This document shows positions 21,053 to 54,650 of a DNA stretch of 64,000 nt, in pieces (the first letter of the stretch is position 1; each line of letters begins with the position of its first letter). Position numbers and translations under genes: made by a program. This stretch comes from a virus (taxonomy: Duplodnaviria > Caudoviricetes), in IMG/VR virus record IMGVR_UViG_3300037067_019009, positions 1 to 64,000 of that record. One strand, given 5' to 3'. Below the pieces are notes generated by a model. That model had not been told where the DNA came from. It saw only the letters and a list, made by a program, of their open reading frames with translations, and did not search any database.

Positions 21053-21249
21053 TGGCGCTAAGAGAAATAACTACGGGTATAACAGACTGCCCCAAATGCG
21101 GAGCTGGTGGCCCAATGAATTTTAGAATCGAGGAAAGAGCCTCGGTCAGGCGGCTTGATAAGAACAGTCCGACCAGGATCACAGTCGTTGAGCGTAGACG
21201 TATGCTCGTCTGCATAAAATGCGGACAAACTATTCCTCTAGATGGCTAA
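21052..21249 (+). CDS. Small zinc-ribbon protein
   Basis: CPKC...CIKC; SD AGGAG; stop/start overlap. Confidence 0.6.
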   Translation: MALREITTGITDCPKCGAGGPMNFRIEERASVRRLDKNSPTRITVVERRRMLVCIKCGQTIPLDG

Positions 21250-21718
21250 TATATTCGAGACGGAGCTTTCCAAAAGCTTCACCGCTCTCGGATGGTGGCA
21301 CCATAAGTTGTCCACATCAGTAAGCCCTTCTCCTGTTGCCAGGAGATTTATGCGTAAGACACCGTTCGACTTTTTCGCTGCAAGTGGTAGGAGCAATCCT
21401 GCCATAGAGGCCAAGTCATCTAAACGTCTAGGTAGTTTTCCATTCGAACGGGTGGAAGATCATCAGGTAGAAGGACTCAAAGATTATAAAAACCATAACA
21501 ACCCGGCGTGGATTCTACTTAACTTTAGAAAGCCGCGTAACGTTACTTACGCGGTAGATATAGATAGCTGGATAAAGCTGACAAACAAATTAGACAGAAA
21601 ATCAGTCCCGGCAGCGCTTTTAAAAGCAAAACCTTTCATAGAGATACCTAGAATAAAAATAGTCACTGAAGATATAACACAGTTGATATGGGACCTCCGG
21701 GTCCTAGAGGGGAGATAA
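21242..21718 (+). CDS. recU: RecU-like Holliday junction resolvase
   Basis: KTPFDF...AIEAKSS...FPFERVEDHQVEGL matches the RecU PD-(D/E)xK pattern. Confidence 0.75.
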   Translation: MANIFETELSKSFTALGWWHHKLSTSVSPSPVARRFMRKTPFDFFAASGRSNPAIEAKSSKRLGSFPFERVEDHQVEGLKDYKNHNNPAWILLNFRKPRNVTYAVDIDSWIKLTNKLDRKSVPAALLKAKPFIEIPRIKIVTEDITQLIWDLRVLEGR

Positions 21719-23329: not shown

Positions 23330-24004
23330 ATGAGCAGCCATACCTTCAATTTTACAACTGGCAGCAAGGATGTAAAGTCCACGAGTGATTATTTAGATGG
23401 GCTGGTCAAAGAATATCGAGTGGGGGTCTCTGGAGCATCAGAGGCCCTCCTGGTAGCATTTACGCCGCTCTTGGTAAAGTACTGGCGGCTGCTCACATCA
23501 GGTCTGTGGGATATAGACGATAAGGACATAACCAAGTTTTTGCGTATGTTGGGAACAGCCGATCTGGAACTTACTTCCGAGAGGCTGGTACAGACTATGA
23601 AGGTCTATGATCCAGAGGATATATGGGGAGAGTTAGTACTTTGTCTCTACAAGACGGCTAAACGCTACACTAATATCTCATCCACCTTTAAGTACATAGT
23701 TAAGCAGCGTGTGATAACCTTAATACGGGATCCTATAGTCTATTCGACTTTAGCTGACCTGGAAACCAGCAGCACGAAAGATCCTGGGGACATAGACCAA
23801 GCATGGATAAACGGGGTAACCGCCGGAGATGGATGGGATCAGCTGACGTGTCTCGAACGCGCTGTAATAAAGCTTATCTATTGGGACGGTCTAAGTATGG
23901 CAGTAGCTGCGAAGAAACTTCATATCTCACTTTCCCAACTGAAACGGTGCAAAAGAATCGGGAAATCGATATTAGCAAAGCACTTCAATCTAAACAAGGA
24001 GTAA
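23330..24004 (+). CDS. Phage sigma-70-like factor / region-4 HTH protein
   Basis: Region-2-like N-part (FTPLLVKYW...EDIWGELVLCL) and region 4 LTCLERAVIKLIYWDGLSMAVAAKKLHIS. Confidence 0.65.
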   Translation: MSSHTFNFTTGSKDVKSTSDYLDGLVKEYRVGVSGASEALLVAFTPLLVKYWRLLTSGLWDIDDKDITKFLRMLGTADLELTSERLVQTMKVYDPEDIWGELVLCLYKTAKRYTNISSTFKYIVKQRVITLIRDPIVYSTLADLETSSTKDPGDIDQAWINGVTAGDGWDQLTCLERAVIKLIYWDGLSMAVAAKKLHISLSQLKRCKRIGKSILAKHFNLNKE

Positions 24005-24334: not shown

Positions 24335-24397
24335 AGACTTGTTGCGAACAAGCTAACTTTGGTGTAGTTAGGAACAATTGAGGCAGCGAAAAGACAA

Positions 24398-24550
24398 ATG
24401 GCTAAGTATGGAGCAGTTGTATATAGTGATGCAAAGTACGGGTCTACCGTTGTAAATAGGAATTCGATAAGGCCGAAACCAATGCCTAAAAAAGAAAACA
24501 TATTAGAAATCAAAGTAACAATATTAGATAAACGCCAATCTGCCGCGTAA
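24398..24550 (+). CDS. 50-aa microprotein MAKYGAVVYSDAKYG...KPMPKKENILEIKVTILDKRQSAA (not in ORF track)
   Basis: Hand-translated ATG 24398 to TAA 24550. The last 24 aa are identical to the C-terminus of 26762-27352. Confidence 0.6.
   Translation: MAKYGAVVYSDAKYGSTVVNRNSIRPKPMPKKENILEIKVTILDKRQSAA
24474..24549 (+). repeat. 76-bp perfect direct repeat, copy 1
   Basis: CGAAACCAATGCCTAAAAAAGAAAAC...CAATCTGCCGCGTA, identical to 27276-27351. Confidence 0.95.
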
Positions 24551-24588
24551 TACCACCCTTACCTGTCCCCCCCTCAGGAGAAAACCAC

Positions 24589-26127
24589 ATGACTTCCGAA
24601 TATCCAGGTGCAATTAAAACTTTTACAGTAAAACAAGATAACGTTGATGACATCATGGCATCGCACATGAATGATGTTCAGGACGAAATATCCGCCATCC
24701 AAACAGAACTTGGCGTGAATCCTTCTGGTGGATTTGAATCAGTTGTCCTGCGGCTGAATGACTTGGAAGCCACAACAACTGCGGCGGTCACGGCATATCT
24801 TGGTATTCTCAATAAAGCAGCGGACTCTGATCTACTGGATGGACATAATACCGACTATTTCGCTACAGCTTCGGAAGCCTCTACTCTATCCTCGCGAGTC
24901 AGCGGTACGGAAGATGATATATTGACGCTGGAGACTGATGTAGATTCAATCGAGAGCATTATAAAAGTTGGTATTCCGAATTGGAAAGACGATCCACGTC
25001 CTACTGAATGGGCAAAGAGTTACGGAGGTAAAGATTTTGTTACTGTTAATGACACGGAAGCCACAATACTAAAAATTGATTCCGGCGCTGGTGTCATCAG
25101 GAGATTTTATCTTACGTCCCAGGTCGAGAAGGTCGCAGATGCAATCATTAAAATCAAACCGGATGGTGGTGAAGCAACTTTTGTATCAACCATTTCAGAA
25201 TGTGCTTTACAGCCACGAGTATTAGCACAATCATTCTGGGAAGATTCTAGTTATGAGCTTGCGAACGGGCTTAAATATATTTCTTCTGATGATGGTTCTG
25301 GAGCTGCTGCAACTCAAGGTAAAGTAAGTCTTACATTTCCTTGGGGTATCCCGTTTAATGATGGAATAGAAATAACGATCACTTGTCCATCGGGAACATC
25401 TGGCAAAAATGTTTACGCTAATGCTGAATATTCAAGCGGCGCTCATCCTTGGCCATTGGGGGAATACGGTGTTTTACGCTGTCAACAGTATAATACCGCG
25501 TCTGGTATAATCTCCGGAGCGCCTGATGATATAAGTCTACCGTCAACATGCACGGGTTTAATAACAATCTCAGGCACAGCTGTGACAGGAGATGGCAGTT
25601 GTTTAGCTGGCATAGAGTTTGATGTAGGAGACTATATATACGTTGGTTTATATGCACTTAAAGTAATCAGTATCACTGACGAAAATCATTTCACCGTAAA
25701 CGCATCAGTATCCGTAGGAACTCCGACGGCATTCAGGGCTGCATCAGATTTTCCTGTATTTACATATAGTGGTGGCGGTATCATTATTGCCATTGCCCGT
25801 ATGATGACCGGTGATAATGATAATATCCTCGAAAATAACTGGTATCTGAAAATAGACGGGACTGAAAAGCGCAGAGGAACTGGCACTGAGGATGACCCAG
25901 ATAGTGGATATTATTATGCGTGTGTCGAATACGCTGGAGAAAATGCTGGAGTGTTGCGTAACTGTAAATTAAGAGGCTTAGACAGCCATACTTGGACTGA
26001 CTATTTGATATTTAATACAGCTGCTTGGAAGTTTAACGAGTCATTCGAGTATGGAGTAAACCCAGTCGAAACTTCTGCTACATCATATACTTTCAAAGGC
26101 ATCGTACTCTTCTACACTGAGAGTTAA
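24589..26127 (+). CDS. Tail-fibre/spike-like protein with DUF2961 (GH172)-like glycosidase domain
   Basis: N-terminal attachment module (YPGAIKTF...ASHMNDVQDEISAIQTELG) and fibre motif LLDGHNTDYFA, then GAGVIRRFYLT, IPFNDGIEIT, LENN..KIDG..GTGTED. Confidence 0.6.
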   Translation: MTSEYPGAIKTFTVKQDNVDDIMASHMNDVQDEISAIQTELGVNPSGGFESVVLRLNDLEATTTAAVTAYLGILNKAADSDLLDGHNTDYFATASEASTLSSRVSGTEDDILTLETDVDSIESIIKVGIPNWKDDPRPTEWAKSYGGKDFVTVNDTEATILKIDSGAGVIRRFYLTSQVEKVADAIIKIKPDGGEATFVSTISECALQPRVLAQSFWEDSSYELANGLKYISSDDGSGAAATQGKVSLTFPWGIPFNDGIEITITCPSGTSGKNVYANAEYSSGAHPWPLGEYGVLRCQQYNTASGIISGAPDDISLPSTCTGLITISGTAVTGDGSCLAGIEFDVGDYIYVGLYALKVISITDENHFTVNASVSVGTPTAFRAASDFPVFTYSGGGIIIAIARMMTGDNDNILENNWYLKIDGTEKRRGTGTEDDPDSGYYYACVEYAGENAGVLRNCKLRGLDSHTWTDYLIFNTAAWKFNESFEYGVNPVETSATSYTFKGIVLFYTES

Positions 26128-26136
26128 GGTAATAAT

Positions 26137-26712
26137 ATGAGCATGATAACTTCCCTACTTAGACACTTCTATACGTTTGCAACGGATTTAGCACACGTCT
26201 TTATGTCTCGTGCAGGTGTTACAGATATAGCTTTCAGAGTATATTCTGTCGCAACAGGTAAAACATTTGACTTTTACGGCAGCGGAAAACTCAAAATACA
26301 TGGACTGGGCGAGGGTTATCGCGCACCTAAATATGGGCTAAATGCTGATGGTGCAACCAATGATTTTAAGGCTGGTGAAAACATACCTGGGAACTATATC
26401 GTGATGGTTGGCGCTGATCAAACTCATGTACTTAAATGCACGGATGTTACTAAAGCCATAGGTACTAATTCAAGCAGTAGCCAAGTAAATAGTGGCGGAC
26501 TTTTCGAGATATTATTCGCGGGGACTTTACCAATCCAACTTGATAGTGCTGTTGGTGGATGTGCCGTTGGAGATTACATTGGATTATCAGGGACGGCAGG
26601 GATGGGAACTAAAGTCACATCAGGGCAATATCTTGGTATAGCGTCGAAAGCTGCTGCTGCTGACGGAGTAGCGCTTGTTATTTGGCGACCTGGCTATCTA
26701 CCAGCAGCATAG
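26137..26712 (+). CDS. Virion decoration/cement-like protein
   Basis: Gly/Ala-rich C-terminus AVGDYIG...LGIASKAAAADG resembles capsid cement (DUF2190-like) folds. Confidence 0.45.
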   Translation: MSMITSLLRHFYTFATDLAHVFMSRAGVTDIAFRVYSVATGKTFDFYGSGKLKIHGLGEGYRAPKYGLNADGATNDFKAGENIPGNYIVMVGADQTHVLKCTDVTKAIGTNSSSSQVNSGGLFEILFAGTLPIQLDSAVGGCAVGDYIGLSGTAGMGTKVTSGQYLGIASKAAAADGVALVIWRPGYLPAA

Positions 26713-26761
26713 GACGTAAGGCATAAACAATGCACACCTACGCTGACAAAAGAGCTTAACA

Positions 26762-27352
26762 ATGTCTACCACAATATTATCGCCAACAATAGCGGAAAAC
26801 GTTGCGGGAGCTGGAGTTAACTGGGTTGATCCAAGCAATGCCCTTACCGATGACAGCACTTATGCTTCAGTTGAGGTGCTCGGACTCTCTGGTAATTTGA
26901 AGCTGAAAACATTCGAGGCAGCTATTCCCAGCACAGTGGTAATCGTGTCCTTAATAGTAACTATCAAGGGTTATGCTTCCGTTGATACGCAGCCGAATGA
27001 CGGCAACATAGTCTATCTCCGGCTCGCTGATGGAACGTTAAGCCCGGGCGTTGAATTCTCATTTCCGATGACAACTCCCGATGAAGTCGAAATCGATTTA
27101 ACGGATGATGCAACCACAATAGCACTTAGCGCAGATGACATAAATGACCCCGACTTCGCAATCGAGATCGTAGCGTCTTCAGATGGTATAGCGCCACAGC
27201 ATTATTATATAGGTAGTGTAACGCTTAGTATAGAAAGTGCTTACTACGCGCCCATGGTTACAACTAGGAGCGCTACGAAACCAATGCCTAAAAAAGAAAA
27301 CATATTAGAAATCAAAGTAACAATATTAGATAAACGCCAATCTGCCGCGTAG
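26762..27352 (+). CDS. Jelly-roll virion protein ending in the repeated 24-aa tag
   Basis: WVDPSNALTDDSTYA...IPSTVVIVSLIVTIKG; C-terminus encoded by repeat copy 2. Confidence 0.6.
   Translation: MSTTILSPTIAENVAGAGVNWVDPSNALTDDSTYASVEVLGLSGNLKLKTFEAAIPSTVVIVSLIVTIKGYASVDTQPNDGNIVYLRLADGTLSPGVEFSFPMTTPDEVEIDLTDDATTIALSADDINDPDFAIEIVASSDGIAPQHYYIGSVTLSIESAYYAPMVTTRSATKPMPKKENILEIKVTILDKRQSAA
27276..27351 (+). repeat. 76-bp perfect direct repeat, copy 2
   Basis: Identical to 24474-24549 (offset 2802 bp). Confidence 0.95.
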
Positions 27353-27402
27353 CTTGGCTTCCTCTCTACTGCTTCAACTCTCACTGGCTTAGTAAAGCCT
27401 GT

Positions 27403-27440
27403 AAAACCCACCGGTATTATTATGTACCTGGTGGGTTTTT
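27403..27440. terminator. Bidirectional intrinsic terminator at the strand switch
   Basis: AAAACCCACC-GGTA...TACC-T-GGTGGGTTTTT between convergent gene blocks. Confidence 0.8.
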
Positions 27441-27451
27441 CTTTGTCTGGA

Positions 27452-28027
27452 CTATAAACTGTCTAGCACCTCTAAGCACTCGGCCACTCTATCATCCATG
27501 CTTACAGATTCCACTAGATGTAAATGTTTAGGTGGTAGGTAGTAAGCATACATACTATATAGATGAGAATCCGCATTGGTTCTCCACAAATCATCAAACT
27601 GTACCTTAGCACGCACGCCATCCACTACTGGTGTAAGTTTTGGCGGGATATGAAAGATTACATCATACCTTGGGTTTGGGTTATTAAGTTTAATCATTTC
27701 CGAGAACAAATCATCCAGTATCATAATCTCTTTAGTGTCTCCAGAAGATAACATAAAGGCATAAACCAAAGAACTAAACACCGGACCATCAGTTATTAAA
27801 ATATCAGCGTAACCAACAGAGTCTTCCCACTCCAACTGCTTTTTAAAAATCCTGAACTGCTCCCACGGCTGAGTCACAGTACCATACTTCGCTATGTACC
27901 TTCTAGCGTACTCCGATAAGAGTTCGATATTTTTTAGTTTCTCTATCCTTCTACATGTACTAGCTAATCCCCTAGCTGTTGATGTTTTCCCCGCGCCAGG
28001 AACGCCAGTAAACCCCACCCTAATCAA
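27452..28027 (-). CDS. NadR-like (AAA_28) P-loop kinase/ATPase
   Basis: GVPGAGKTS, LSEYARRYI, ILITDG, VVDGVR. Confidence 0.75.
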   Translation of the reverse strand: MIRVGFTGVPGAGKTSTARGLASTCRRIEKLKNIELLSEYARRYIAKYGTVTQPWEQFRIFKKQLEWEDSVGYADILITDGPVFSSLVYAFMLSSGDTKEIMILDDLFSEMIKLNNPNPRYDVIFHIPPKLTPVVDGVRAKVQFDDLWRTNADSHLYSMYAYYLPPKHLHLVESVSMDDRVAECLEVLDSL

Positions 28028-28125
28028 ACGTTATCTCCTTTGTTTTCATTCTACTTAGTAATTATTGCAGGGCTATAACCCTGCATTTATGCATTGCATG
28101 GCTGGAGCCTTGTAATATTAATTAG

Positions 28126-28620
28126 CTACGCTAGAATCCAGTAATCTTCCCCATCGAAGTCTACAGTGAAATAGTCCTGCTTCAACTCCTTGGCGGCGGC
28201 TTCCCAATCAATATGTCGGAAGGGCCAACCTTCAGCCTTGCCCATGTCGCATATATCAGTGGCTAGTTGTTCTGCATATTCCTCGAAGTAAGAATCCCTT
28301 ATAAGAGTTTCTCCATAATTCCACCCCGGAGAGCTGCCGGCATCTTCAGCCAGATTTTTAAGTGCTGTAAGTTCATCAGCGTCATCTGAATCATCCCAGC
28401 TCTCGAGATTGTATATTGCATCCTCCACAGCCTTCCTGAGGTTTGCATAGGGGCTATCCGGTCTCTCGTCATCTTTATCAACATCGGCCGTTTCTAGGGC
28501 TTCCTGGGCCTCATCTATGGCAAACTGAAGATTTTCTCGGTCTTCCTCCAACTCTTCTATTCTTTTTATGACATCTCTAGAATCTATGAGATCCTGCGAG
28601 TTGTATATTGATTTAGCCAT
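28126..28620 (-). CDS. Highly acidic ArdA-like antirestriction / DNA-mimic protein
   Basis: Very D/E-rich; C-terminal FEEYAEQL...IDWEAAAKELKQDY resembles the ArdA C-terminal motif. Confidence 0.55.
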   Translation of the reverse strand: MAKSIYNSQDLIDSRDVIKRIEELEEDRENLQFAIDEAQEALETADVDKDDERPDSPYANLRKAVEDAIYNLESWDDSDDADELTALKNLAEDAGSSPGWNYGETLIRDSYFEEYAEQLATDICDMGKAEGWPFRHIDWEAAAKELKQDYFTVDFDGEDYWILA

Positions 28621-28626
28621 ACTATG

Positions 28627-28845
28627 CTATACCTCCTCTTCATCTTCTTCTCTCCCTATGTCTTCTCCTCTTTCCAGTGGCTCGTACAAACCATCTAACA
28701 CCAACTCACACATAAGTTCTCTTACTGGCTGATTACGCTTCCTCGCCACGGACTTAAATCTACTATACTCTCTACGAGTAAGCCGCACAGTAAATCGAAA
28801 ATCTGCGCAATCATTTCCGCCTTTTGTAGGAAACCATCTAGGCAT
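28627..28845 (-). CDS. Ribbon-helix-helix DNA-binding protein
   Basis: FTVRLTRREYSRFKSVARKRNQPVRELM. Confidence 0.6.
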   Translation of the reverse strand: MPRWFPTKGGNDCADFRFTVRLTRREYSRFKSVARKRNQPVRELMCELVLDGLYEPLERGEDIGREEDEEEV

Positions 28846-28880
28846 ATACTATACTCCTCTAATTCGGCAGGTCTTCTATA

Positions 28881-30938
28881 CTACTCTTTAGTCCAGTAGC
28901 CCGCTACTGTATAGTCTATTTCTACTGGAACAGACTTAATCACGACTTCTCCAGCCTCTATCATGCGGGATTCCGCAATCTTAACTACCTGTTCTACATA
29001 ATCATCTCTAACTTCTATTACTATCTCATCATGTACGCAGTTCACAATAGCCGCTGGTACGCCATCATAAAATAGATCATCAGCGATCATTACCATAGCA
29101 AGCTTAGTTATATCAGCACTCGTTCCTTGTATAGGCGTATTAGCTCCCTGGTTCTTCAGGGACGCCTCAATAGCGTTGGCTACATCTGCAGGTAGTCTTT
29201 CTCTGTCTGGAAGAGTGTACCATCTTTTTCTCCCAAGCATAGTTGTGGAGTAGCCTTTGTCGAATGGGTCACTTTGTGCTGCTATTACGTAAGCTCGGAC
29301 ATTCTGAAATGCTTCAAAGTATTTGCGCTTTGCTTTGGCTGCTTTATTTATGGACTCACGCATTATCTTCTCTGATGAAGTAACGTCATATCCCAGCGCT
29401 TCTGCCAAGGCCTTATCTCCAAGACCATAGATAACCGCGAAATTCAGAGTCTTTCCTTGTGATCGTTTATCGGTTCCCTTGCCGCATTCCTCGATAGGAA
29501 CATTAAACATAGTAGATGCTGTCTGTGAGTGAACATCTCCTCCAGACCTGATGACCCTTTTTAGCGTCTCATCTCCTGCTACTTCGGCTGCTATCCTCAG
29601 CTCTATCTGTGAATAATCACAAGTCAGCAATGTGTAACCTGGTCTAGATCTGAAGCAGGTATGGAATGTGTAGTCCGGCAGTGTAGGGTCGTACTTACTT
29701 TTACTACTGCTCCATCTGGGGTCATCTTTAGGAAACGGGTTATGCGGGTTGTTAGGCACATTCTGGATATTTGGCTCTTTTGACGCGTACCTACCAGACT
29801 CAGCTCTTACCTGGTTCAGGCTCGAATGAATTCTACCCGTGACCGGGTTCTTGAACCCTATCCAACTCTCCCCATAATTGTCTAATTGCTTTTGTTTCGC
29901 TCGAAGTTCGAGCATTTTAACAGCCGCAGGATGTTTCACCTGAGATAGCGCCCGTTTATCGGTGCTGCTCAGTTGTATTCCGATGTCAGCGAAACAACGC
30001 TGGACCTGCTGTGGACTTCGTAGATTTATGGAGTAGATGCTGCCAGTTATTTCAGGAAACATCCCTAGTTGATTGGCGGAGCCTTTGAAGTAATTACATA
30101 TTTCTCCATGCAGCCGCAGCAGCTCTGCTTCCGCAAGGTCTACTATACGCATCCACATATCCCTGTCAACATAGATGCCTTCATACTCCATATCAGCAGT
30201 AACTGGTACGAGTCTATTTTCCAGAATAGCTGTTGCACTCAGACCTTCTCTACCTAACTCCTGCTCTTGTGCCAGCTTTATGTTATGCAAACAGTAAACA
30301 TCCGCTGCAGCATACTCTATATGCTCACCGGTCCAGGCAGGGCTCTCTTCGCGTTTTCTATAGGCGGCTACCAGTGACGGGTGCATCACGAAAGACGACC
30401 TCATATCCTTATCCAGCCGAAATCCGAGGTACTTCTCACACTGATCTGTTAGAGCGTTTGGCGTGTATATCGGATCACCATTCGGTTTATAGCCGCGATA
30501 CTTACCTACGGTCAGCAGGCGTCCCATTATTACTACATCATAGACTCTGCGTGGGCGTATCCCTCTAGCTCGAAGTATTTTGAGATCGAACCCTATGTTG
30601 GCTCCAAGCAGTAGATGACCCTCTATCACCTCTTTAAGTGGAAGGATATCCAACATAAAAGTATCTATCACATGCACTACATCTGAGTCCGGTCTTCTCA
30701 ACGATAGCAGCCACGAGCTGCTGGTATGTGGATCCAGTCCTGAAGTTTCCAGGTCCAAACCCAGGGATGGGGCGTCATTGTAGAACTCTGCCAGGGCATC
30801 CAACTCGTCTTGATCTGCTATGTACACCGGCTTCATTTTGGCCGTGTAGCTTTGATACGGAGATAGTGGCTTCTCCTGTGCTACAAATTCGTCAAGTAGA
30901 TGTCCTGATGTTACACGTGTATTTTTAGCCTTAACCAT
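28881..30938 (-). CDS. polA: Family A DNA polymerase (3'-5' exonuclease + polymerase, no 5'-3' exonuclease)
   Basis: ExoI DLETSG, ExoIII YAAADV, motif A DYSQIELR, motif B KTLNFAVIYG, motif C VHDEI. Confidence 0.95.
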   Translation of the reverse strand: MVKAKNTRVTSGHLLDEFVAQEKPLSPYQSYTAKMKPVYIADQDELDALAEFYNDAPSLGLDLETSGLDPHTSSSWLLSLRRPDSDVVHVIDTFMLDILPLKEVIEGHLLLGANIGFDLKILRARGIRPRRVYDVVIMGRLLTVGKYRGYKPNGDPIYTPNALTDQCEKYLGFRLDKDMRSSFVMHPSLVAAYRKREESPAWTGEHIEYAAADVYCLHNIKLAQEQELGREGLSATAILENRLVPVTADMEYEGIYVDRDMWMRIVDLAEAELLRLHGEICNYFKGSANQLGMFPEITGSIYSINLRSPQQVQRCFADIGIQLSSTDKRALSQVKHPAAVKMLELRAKQKQLDNYGESWIGFKNPVTGRIHSSLNQVRAESGRYASKEPNIQNVPNNPHNPFPKDDPRWSSSKSKYDPTLPDYTFHTCFRSRPGYTLLTCDYSQIELRIAAEVAGDETLKRVIRSGGDVHSQTASTMFNVPIEECGKGTDKRSQGKTLNFAVIYGLGDKALAEALGYDVTSSEKIMRESINKAAKAKRKYFEAFQNVRAYVIAAQSDPFDKGYSTTMLGRKRWYTLPDRERLPADVANAIEASLKNQGANTPIQGTSADITKLAMVMIADDLFYDGVPAAIVNCVHDEIVIEVRDDYVEQVVKIAESRMIEAGEVVIKSVPVEIDYTVAGYWTKE

Positions 30939-53539: not shown

Positions 53540-54650
53540 CTTTACTTTCCTCCAAGCTGGCTTTTATGGCTTCGATTAGAACATCTGAACTCTTAATAGC
53601 GGCCAGAACCGCATCCTGTCCATGTAATCTCAACGGCTCATCCACCTTACCATCTGATTTCCACAGTCCTAGTGGGGCAAGAAGCTCCTTAGACATATTA
53701 AACTGATAGTAACTTTTGCTTCCTTCTACTATGGCTTTAGATATAAGCGCGACATTGAATAATAGAAGTATATTATCCGTTCCTACATTATAACGTACCG
53801 TGTACTCCGCCGTTTCATGTGGATGTCCGCCTAAACCCGCGTTATTCTTGTCAACGTATAACTTCACGGTATGTCCCACCACATGTCTGCTAGCTCCCGT
53901 CCCTTCCCAAATGAGGTCTTTCTTAGGAGCTGAGAATTTCAGAATAACTTTAGGATTAAACACCATGGCCCTTCCTCCAGGTTGTGTCTTACCGCCCCCG
54001 TAGGAATTAATATCTACTCTATCCTGGTTTATCATGACCATGGCACATTTGCCAAGGAATGGATTGATATCTCTTGTCGCTCTGCTCATAAGGCGAGCGT
54101 GTAGTCCTATGTTCTGAGACGCTATACCATCTTCCATAGTTTTATCCATTTCAGCCTTAGGTACCAGCATCGCTACTGAGTCTATAACGGCGACATCTAT
54201 TACATTCCTTGGAACTAACGTATCCTTATCTACAAGGAATTCTATAATCATATCCAAGGCCTCTTCGGCTATAGCAAACCCCTCTATAAATATGAGACTA
54301 TCTAAGTCCACACCCACCATACGGGCTTGCTCTATGGGAAACACTCCCTCTGATAGCGCGTACAGGCCAACACCACCAGCCTTCTGTGCCCCAGCTATGA
54401 TTTCCAGACCGGCGGTAGTTTTTCCGGTACCAGAATCTCCCCAAAAGACATGTATAGTTCCTCGCTTCAAACCACCATGTAGGGCTCGGTTTATGGCTAT
54501 GTTCGGCGTAGCTATAACACCAGGATTCATCAGGTCCGGACGCTCTCCAGCTATGAATACTGCTGGGCGGTCGTCTGTGGGGTGGTCTTTCTTCTTCTTC
54601 CTATTTAGTTTATCTATTACTTTAAGCAGCTCTGGATTATCTATTCCCAA
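53532..54650 (-). CDS. recA: RecA-family recombinase
   Basis: GGLKRG, GDSGTGKTT, VIDSVA.LVPKAE, ARLMS, INQ.R, PGGRA. Confidence 0.92.
   Translation of the reverse strand: MGIDNPELLKVIDKLNRKKKKDHPTDDRPAVFIAGERPDLMNPGVIATPNIAINRALHGGLKRGTIHVFWGDSGTGKTTAGLEIIAGAQKAGGVGLYALSEGVFPIEQARMVGVDLDSLIFIEGFAIAEEALDMIIEFLVDKDTLVPRNVIDVAVIDSVAMLVPKAEMDKTMEDGIASQNIGLHARLMSRATRDINPFLGKCAMVMINQDRVDINSYGGGKTQPGGRAMVFNPKVILKFSAPKKDLIWEGTGASRHVVGHTVKLYVDKNNAGLGGHPHETAEYTVRYNVGTDNILLLFNVALISKAIVEGSKSYYQFNMSKELLAPLGLWKSDGKVDEPLRLHGQDAVLAAIKSSDVLIEAIKASLEESKDG

Follow-up and report, generated by a model that had tools for sequence, protein, structure and literature searches.

The window analysed here is the first 64 kb of a 212,668-base-pair (bp) phage contig (IMG/VR record IMGVR_UViG_3300037067_019009). 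It carries a cassette of four genes, encoding proteins of 50, 512, 191 and 196 amino acids (aa), of which the first and the last end in the same 76-bp sequence. We refer to this direct repeat as R, and to the 24-residue C-terminal peptide that it encodes as the shared tail. The locus comprises the following features.

24398–24550, plus strand: 50-aa open reading frame (ORF), here termed 'micro-YG'; residues 1–26 form the N-terminal part with a MAKYG..Y..YG motif (the YG motif) and residues 27–50 the shared tail
24474–24549, plus strand: copy 1 of R, the last 24 codons and the TA of the stop codon of the 50-aa ORF
24589–26127, plus strand: 512-aa fibre-like protein with a fibre-type N terminus; its C-terminal half is weakly DUF2961/GH172-like
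26137–26712, plus strand: 191-aa protein of unassigned function, with a cement-like or preneck-appendage-like lead
26762–27352, plus strand: 196-aa β-sandwich protein resembling carbohydrate-binding modules (CBMs); the fold spans residues 1–161, with a 10-residue linker and then the shared 24-aa tail behind it
27276–27351, plus strand: copy 2 of R, the last 24 codons and the TA of the stop codon of the 196-aa ORF

The two copies of R (24474–24549 and 27276–27351) are identical at 76 of 76 nucleotides (nt) and lie in direct orientation at an offset of 2802. The base that precedes R is C at copy 1 and A at copy 2, the base that follows it is A and G, respectively, and the identity ends inside the two stop codons (TAA at 24548–24550 and TAG at 27350–27352). 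Both copies are read in frame and place the same 24 C-terminal residues on the 50-aa ORF (24398–24550) and the 196-aa ORF (26762–27352). A perfect, coding, in-frame repeat with a common 24-aa C terminus is what the initial annotation of this sequence had described, and it was borne out down to its coordinates and stop codons. There is no similarity beyond R: the 150-nt flanks align locally no better than shuffled sequences. By an arithmetic estimate, the chance expectation of such a repeat in 213 kb is around 1e-35. Comparison of the whole contig (212,668 bp) with itself by BLAST returned R as the sole internal repeat, the only other match being an overlap of the contig ends, and the genome contains no second site flanked by R. 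The repeat forms no predicted RNA or DNA fold on either strand (z of 0.4 and 1.1), has no match in Rfam and contains no promoter or terminator consensus. Between copy 1 and the ribosome-binding site that serves the 512-aa gene is a 38-nt leader; it includes seven consecutive C residues (24567–24573), which may be prone to slippage.

For the arrangement of the locus in reads and assemblies, we write A for the DNA upstream of copy 1, B for the 2,726 bases between the copies and C for the DNA downstream of copy 2. The data used were the Logan contigs and unitigs (k = 31) of four runs: a groundwater run that is the probable source of the contig (X1; around 12×), a landfill run (X2; around 3×) and two runs that hold scraps only and are uninformative (X3 and X4). 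In the groundwater graph, R stands alone as a 76-nt unitig that two paths enter and two leave, which is the topology expected for a true 76-nt repeat in two contexts; the repeat is therefore present in the reads and not merely in the assembly. Among the groundwater contigs, A stops 30 nt into R, C begins 30 nt before the end of R and the B contig (24520–27305) includes 30 nt of R at each side. Depth is flat across the three segments (11.6 for A, 13.1 for B and 12.4 for C). An independent landfill contig (L006/L007; 2,961 bp, assembled at k = 141) covers 26621–29323 at 100% identity and physically joins B–R–C, and a contig from X2 (27090–27679) also bridges copy 2 without branching. With B tied to C by the k = 141 contig and with equal depths of A, B and C, the only consistent path is A–R–B–R–C. 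This order is real and mis-assembly, which the initial annotation had named as one outcome that would overturn its reading, is very unlikely given the k = 141 contig and the flat depth. Landfill contigs match the window at 100% identity wherever they cover it, in samples four years and two habitats apart; this cover includes B–R–C and not copy 1. The gap over copy 1 in X2 (24372–24602) is one of many at around 3× and is not readable as an absence of copy 1. Essentially every genome in the sampled populations carries one copy of the cassette.

The 50-aa ORF was called as a gene by a source pipeline (P0014). Over its first 18 residues it is similar to the very beginning of a 499-aa protein (genome 203565–205064; L008:5566–7065) that is encoded directly after Baseplate_J, the position of the gpI/XkdT 'triplex' subunit, and these two ORFs are the only ones in the genome that have the YG motif. 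We scanned IMG/VR for the motif as a degenerate pattern at the protein start (M-A-K-Y-G-x3-Y-x4-Y-G) and recovered 88 loci, compared with fewer than one expected; at most of them the motif begins proteins of 600–1,240 aa. No description of this N-terminal motif was found. Triplex proteins (P2 gpI, XkdT, diffocin TRI-1 and E217 gp45; PDB 9gb2, 9g8s, 8v3w and 9ki1) are related to this group in that the motif starts both the 499-aa post-Baseplate_J protein and a 209-aa protein of another phage, which is a clear XkdT/TRI-1 triplex homologue (of 9gb2_M, 9g8s_N and 8v3w_N). In the 209-aa protein, the motif is an add-on that precedes the part aligned to the solved triplex folds. The 50-aa ORF, by contrast, consists of the motif and a short tail only, without the triplex fold, and the solved homologues align after the motif. 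In phage E217, the subunit at the triplex position is the fibre attachment site (PMC10329688).

Six YG loci have ORFs of only 42–51 aa (48 aa in L015, L066 and L068; 51 aa in L046 and L047; 42 aa in L038). The micro-YG layout consists of the YG motif, a linker of around 10 residues and a tail of around 22–25 residues, for a total of around 50 aa. Between the 48- and 51-aa forms, 12 codons differ by synonymous changes only and 15 by replacement, which argues that both are maintained as coding genes. These ORFs directly follow a 233-aa gene that has the same N-terminal fibre motif as the 512-aa protein, and at a further locus (L003) a long YG protein follows a fibre-like gene. Four of the small micro-YG ORFs align without gaps through residue 26, with an invariant arginine at position 25 (R25), and their tails are weakly alike. 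An AlphaFold2 model of the 50-aa ORF, built from four sequences, was uninformative (predicted local distance difference test (pLDDT) of 57). These comparisons tentatively suggest that the 50-aa ORF is not a random remnant but probably a genuine small gene, of a type that recurs, is linked to fibre genes and is known from two or three lineages only. The micro-YG ORFs would then represent an unannotated class of tail-associated proteins of around 50 residues, mostly missed by gene callers, that may join in fibre attachment.

The 196-aa protein has 41 relatives by HMMER (E ≤ 1e-3), with a common domain over residues ~5–163. It belongs to an unnamed β-sandwich family of around 160 residues with the signature 'W.NP.NA...YAT ... 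ITVYYT' and conserved W21, P56, F132 and Y162. Relatives are either free-standing proteins of around 180–200 aa or domains within proteins of 600–1,100 aa, and one of the long relatives has a Peptidase_S74 fibre chaperone. AlphaFold2, run with the family alignment, predicted a confident β-sandwich for residues 1–161 (pLDDT of 87.8 overall), and Foldseek weakly matched the model to CBM4/29/35/36-like folds (E of ~4e-4 to 2e-3; template modelling (TM) score of ~0.35–0.44), a generic jelly-roll likeness. The earlier description of this protein as a jelly-roll is thereby upheld, as a jelly-roll-type β-sandwich. Residues 162–196 were modelled as coil (pLDDT of 53–69), and in the family alignment the conserved domain stops at the 'YY' strand (Y162), beyond which relatives end or bear unrelated tails of up to ~35 residues. 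On both grounds, the shared 24 residues are predicted to be a disordered, flexible extension behind the 196-aa fold and not a part of it.

Two further genes lie between the copies of R. The 512-aa protein begins like a widespread kind of tail fibre: its residues 1–90 match three fibre-like proteins from IMG/VR (L003–L005; 35–58% identity), and within its first 45 residues the protein carries the N-terminal motif '...DNVD.IMA...N..Q.EI.AI...L', after which comes a variable C-terminal part. One of the three matches (L004), of 527 aa, also has the DNVD.IMA motif. The motif occurs once in the genome of this phage, and an exact DNVD.IMA scan of IMG/VR returned mostly unrelated proteins and no new pairs of fibre and YG genes. 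Residues 252–491 match Pfam DUF2961 (PF11175) with an E value of 1.8e-4 and a score of 21.5 bits, under the 27-bit gathering cut-off. The gene had been labelled a GH172-like fibre: the fibre-type N terminus stands, but with the DUF2961 match below the Pfam cut-off a GH172/DUF2961 identity is a lead and not a membership. The 191-aa protein has no match in Pfam or PHROG. Its structural neighbours in the ESM Atlas are clusters of Phage_cement_2/DUF2190 and Peptidase_G2 (TM of 0.52–0.55); the TM score by query is 0.52 for the Phage_cement_2/DUF2190 cluster, 40% of which carries PF09956. A cement-like or preneck-appendage-like protein is a lead only, and the 'cement-like' label first given to this gene survives at that level, backed by the Atlas neighbours but not by Pfam or PHROG.

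The composition of the cassette differs from that of the genome. We ranked the G+C content at third codon positions (GC3) over 146 ORFs of at least 150 aa (mean of 0.463, standard deviation (s.d.) of 0.053), and the two lowest values belong to the 191-aa gene (0.30) and the 512-aa gene (0.33). The GC3 of the 50-aa ORF is 0.31 and that of the 196-aa gene is 0.41, from which we derived a value of around 0.43 for its body; that of R, counted by hand, is 0.25, which is nearer to the 50-aa ORF and the 512- and 191-aa genes than to the body of the 196-aa gene. By tetranucleotide profile, the cassette ranks at the 99th percentile for distance from the genome, and the main tail module lies around 175 kb away. 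Low GC3, tetranucleotide distance and separation from the main tail module together suggest that the four genes (50, 512, 191 and 196 aa) are probably a horizontally acquired accessory tail-fibre module. This foreign composition fits the origin implied by the initial annotation, which had called the cassette a 'plug-in'. Searches by megablast and tblastn of 50,697 phage records returned no close relative of the phage, with the cassette region unmatched and polA matched only at less than 30% identity. A search of IMG/VR for related loci returned none through the 196-aa protein or polA, and N-terminal matches only through the 512-aa protein. In the literature, we found nothing specific on repeat-flanked fibre cassettes.

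We consider it moderately probable that R is a genuine and evolutionarily young recombination product within an acquired module, open to passive loss or duplication and serving no dedicated system of excision or amplification. The copies show no synonymous differences in 76 nt and have sharp edges, so the duplication is either young or has been kept uniform by conversion. In the series of events that we propose, the 3′ end of one gene (24 codons to the stop) would have come to end a second gene 2.8 kb away. The tail would have been native to the small YG gene and captured by the CBM-like 196-aa gene, a second copy of the 3′ part of the small gene having been fused in frame just behind the β-sandwich, with the other joint at the gene boundary or stop codon. 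A single crossover of a circular R–B fragment would be an alternative path. The GC3 of R and the weak likeness among micro-YG tails point to the small gene as the native setting of the tail, and we weakly infer that copying ran from the small gene to the 196-aa gene. The consequence would be passive: with the RecA of the phage and 76 bp of perfect homology, rare crossovers would delete or duplicate three genes and leave the small ORF intact. R would accordingly be a passive liability, or an opportunity for rare loss or duplication, rather than an evolved excision system. The recombination mechanism, like any role of the shared tail, is one that we infer.

The arrangement is a variant of known phage mosaicism and repeat-mediated instability. 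Tailed phages reportedly exchange modules as mosaics with joints at gene boundaries, a pattern said to be captured by the modular theory of Susskind and Botstein and, by Hendrix and colleagues, in terms of illegitimate recombination and selection. As in such mosaics, a foreign accessory structural block ends a transcription block here, and its joints are at a stop codon and an intergenic leader. However, ordinary mosaic joints leave no repeat, whereas this locus has a perfect 76-bp in-frame duplication and two unrelated proteins with a common C terminus. In deletion mutants of T4 and T7, deletion and duplication take place between short direct repeats, of 5–20 bp in classical cases. A phage that encodes RecA and has direct repeats at a spacing of 2.8 kb likewise offers a substrate for loss or tandem duplication, but the repeat here is far longer and coding in both copies, and no deleted or duplicated form was seen. 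New at this locus are the tail placed outside the 196-aa fold and the small class of micro-YG ORFs of around 50 residues beside fibre genes. If R is only a young scar, the locus offers a clean natural snapshot of the acquisition and instability of accessory receptor-binding modules of phages, an expected and useful example.

Several observations weigh against the interpretation of R as a young and passive product. No relative of the phage turned up, which leaves neither the ancestral state nor the direction of copying open to reconstruction. R fits the protein layout tidily: it begins behind residue 26 in the small ORF and behind the linker in the 196-aa protein, and it closes within the stop codon of each. 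A random scar would show less order, and the peptide could be selected in both proteins. The depth of the R unitig in the groundwater run is 35.4, compared with around 25 expected for two copies. The depth of R must equal that of A plus B, and therefore no mix of A–R–B–R–C, A–R–C and B–R circles gives 35.4; the excess is around 2 s.d. for a unitig of 46 words, and could reflect noise, or a third context that the examined contigs do not include. In addition, the data are contigs at around 12× rather than raw reads, in which deletion or circle forms below around 10% are invisible.

A functional reading of the shared tail, which we regard as possible but unlikely, is that it is a docking peptide that binds one partner (for example the 512-aa fibre or the 191-aa protein, or else a site on the baseplate), with gene conversion keeping the two copies identical. 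The small ORF would be anchored in the phage tail by its YG end, and the shared peptide would bring the CBM-like protein to the virion. Both copies are in frame to the stop codon, both proteins keep an intact N-terminal part, and the tail is a flexible part beyond the fold, which would suit a docking peptide. Moreover, most relatives of the 196-aa protein have a variable tail of some kind (15–35 aa), YG proteins include triplex baseplate proteins of the XkdT/gpI type, the subunit to which fibres attach in E217, and micro-YG ORFs adjoin fibre genes in another lineage. However, the peptide was found in no other protein. A degenerate DNA pattern did not recover the 24-aa tail elsewhere in IMG/VR, its exact core was found in JGI metagenome contigs only in the landfill contig already known, and word-based searches together with full HMMER searches of protein databases (billions of proteins) returned only this phage. 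The search of phage proteomes that the initial annotation had proposed for this 'tag' thus found it nowhere else. No neighbouring protein at the other micro-YG loci bears a copy of the tail encoded there, and the AlphaFold2 model of the 50-aa ORF gives no guidance. Perfect nucleotide identity, furthermore, is the prediction of a recent event, and conversion is an extra assumption. A weak tag-like match at genome 88821–88871 was rejected, as it is inside an SSB-like OB-fold protein and is not C-terminal.

Docking modules in the branched receptor-binding-protein systems of phages such as G7C and CBA120 are N-terminal folded domains that are conserved across phages. The idea would be similar, in that several tail proteins would attach to one partner through a short module that they have in common, but the module here is a C-terminal peptide of 24 aa that is predicted to be disordered and is unique to one phage. 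Degrons of the ssrA type, which are recognized by ClpXP, end in -LAA; the shared tail is likewise a disordered C-terminal tail that ends in Ala-Ala, but its last residues are -QSAA, without the Leu of -LAA. Selection for the tail in both proteins would make it a minimal transferable docking peptide for tail accessory proteins. Distinctly improbable, in our assessment, is a combined scheme in which a short C-terminal peptide, its DNA kept identical by gene conversion, is a common plug through which a free-standing 50-aa baseplate anchor and a glycan-binding decoration protein bind one partner, and in which the copies of R double as handles for gain and loss of the module without a site-specific recombinase.

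The initial annotation went further and read the cassette as a programmed, recombination-driven plug-in for varying host range, with regular excision, circularisation or amplification by way of R. We consider this very improbable. Its geometry is right: one crossover removes exactly three intact genes and leaves the 50-aa ORF intact, and the circle keeps the three genes intact, so that all ORFs are intact in both products. The two recombination proteins on which that reading drew are present.

21242–21718, plus strand: RecU
53781–54521, minus strand: RecA

The cassette is also compositionally foreign, and its depth (13.1) is slightly above that of the flanks (11.6–12.4), but the difference is within noise and there is no depth step over the cassette. 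Neither deletion, circle nor tandem joints were found in the four runs (k = 31 contigs, at around 12× or lower), which lends no support to the predicted excision, circularisation and amplification. Across 2.9 million viral and 241 million metagenome contigs, R was not found in another context, and the relatives with an empty site or other cargo that had been anticipated did not appear. The absence of an integrase, noted earlier for the neighbourhood of the cassette, extends to the whole genome: tyrosine (PF00589) and serine (PF00239) recombinases had no match in 212,668 bp, and control genomes all or mostly matched. There is thus no dedicated recombinase, R flanks no second site in the genome, and two samples four years and two habitats apart have the same arrangement where covered. 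Campbell-type integration and excision, with att sites and an integrase, is alike in that identical direct repeats bound a foreign cassette and that a crossover gives a circle and an intact 'empty' site; it is unlike this locus, at which the 76-bp repeats are within coding sequence, no circle junction was seen and the genome has no tyrosine or serine recombinase. What survives of the initial reading is an acquired fibre module with recombination handles in principle, but not a demonstrated plug-in, amplification, docking tag or degron.

Barely credible is an assembly artefact, in which a 2.8-kb circle or an R-sharing strain variant was wrongly threaded into the genome: the contig is metagenomic in origin, 76 equals k − 1 at k = 77, the k = 31 graph alone cannot separate A–R–B–R–C from A–R–C plus a B–R circle, and the landfill sample has no cover over 24372–24602, but that gap is one of many at its depth, a k = 141 contig from another sample joins B–R–C, which is impossible from a free circle, and B joined to C with equal depths of A, B and C leaves A–R–B–R–C only.

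The cassette is at the end of a plus-strand block, after a RecU-like gene, a sigma-70-region-4-like gene and a 107-aa gene. Downstream, a strong hairpin (27403–27439) precedes a convergent block that includes an AAA_28 ATPase and DNA polymerase A.

27403–27445, no strand assigned: hairpin with an A-run and a U-run; the fold of 27352–27460 has a free energy of −29.4 kcal/mol (z = −3.0)

This hairpin probably terminates transcription from both directions, at the point where the two gene blocks converge. The gene at 23330–24004, directly upstream of the cassette, encodes a 224-aa protein with a weak match to sigma-70 region 4 that is below Pfam cut-offs and with a match to PHROG 36 (transcriptional regulator); this sigma-70-region-4-like protein is a possible candidate for a late-gene regulator of the phage. 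At the far end of the landfill contig (L006/L007, 2704–2961), 258 nt of AT-rich sequence that is absent from this genome follows window position 29323 inside polA and breaks the polA frame. This divergent stretch could be a chimeric contig end or an insertion in polA (an intron or homing element) in the landfill variant.

The two ends of the contig overlap, with positions 1–135 and 212534–212668 differing at one base (99.3% identity); the record nevertheless lists the genome as linear and 84% complete. Given this overlap, the genome is probably closed or circularly permuted, with a length of around 212.5 kb. A Logan contig of the groundwater run extends 17 kb past window position 1. The baseplate cluster also includes, just ahead of Baseplate_J, a gene for a glycosyltransferase that has a SEC-C zinc motif at its C terminus (L008:3094–4254; genome 201093–202253).

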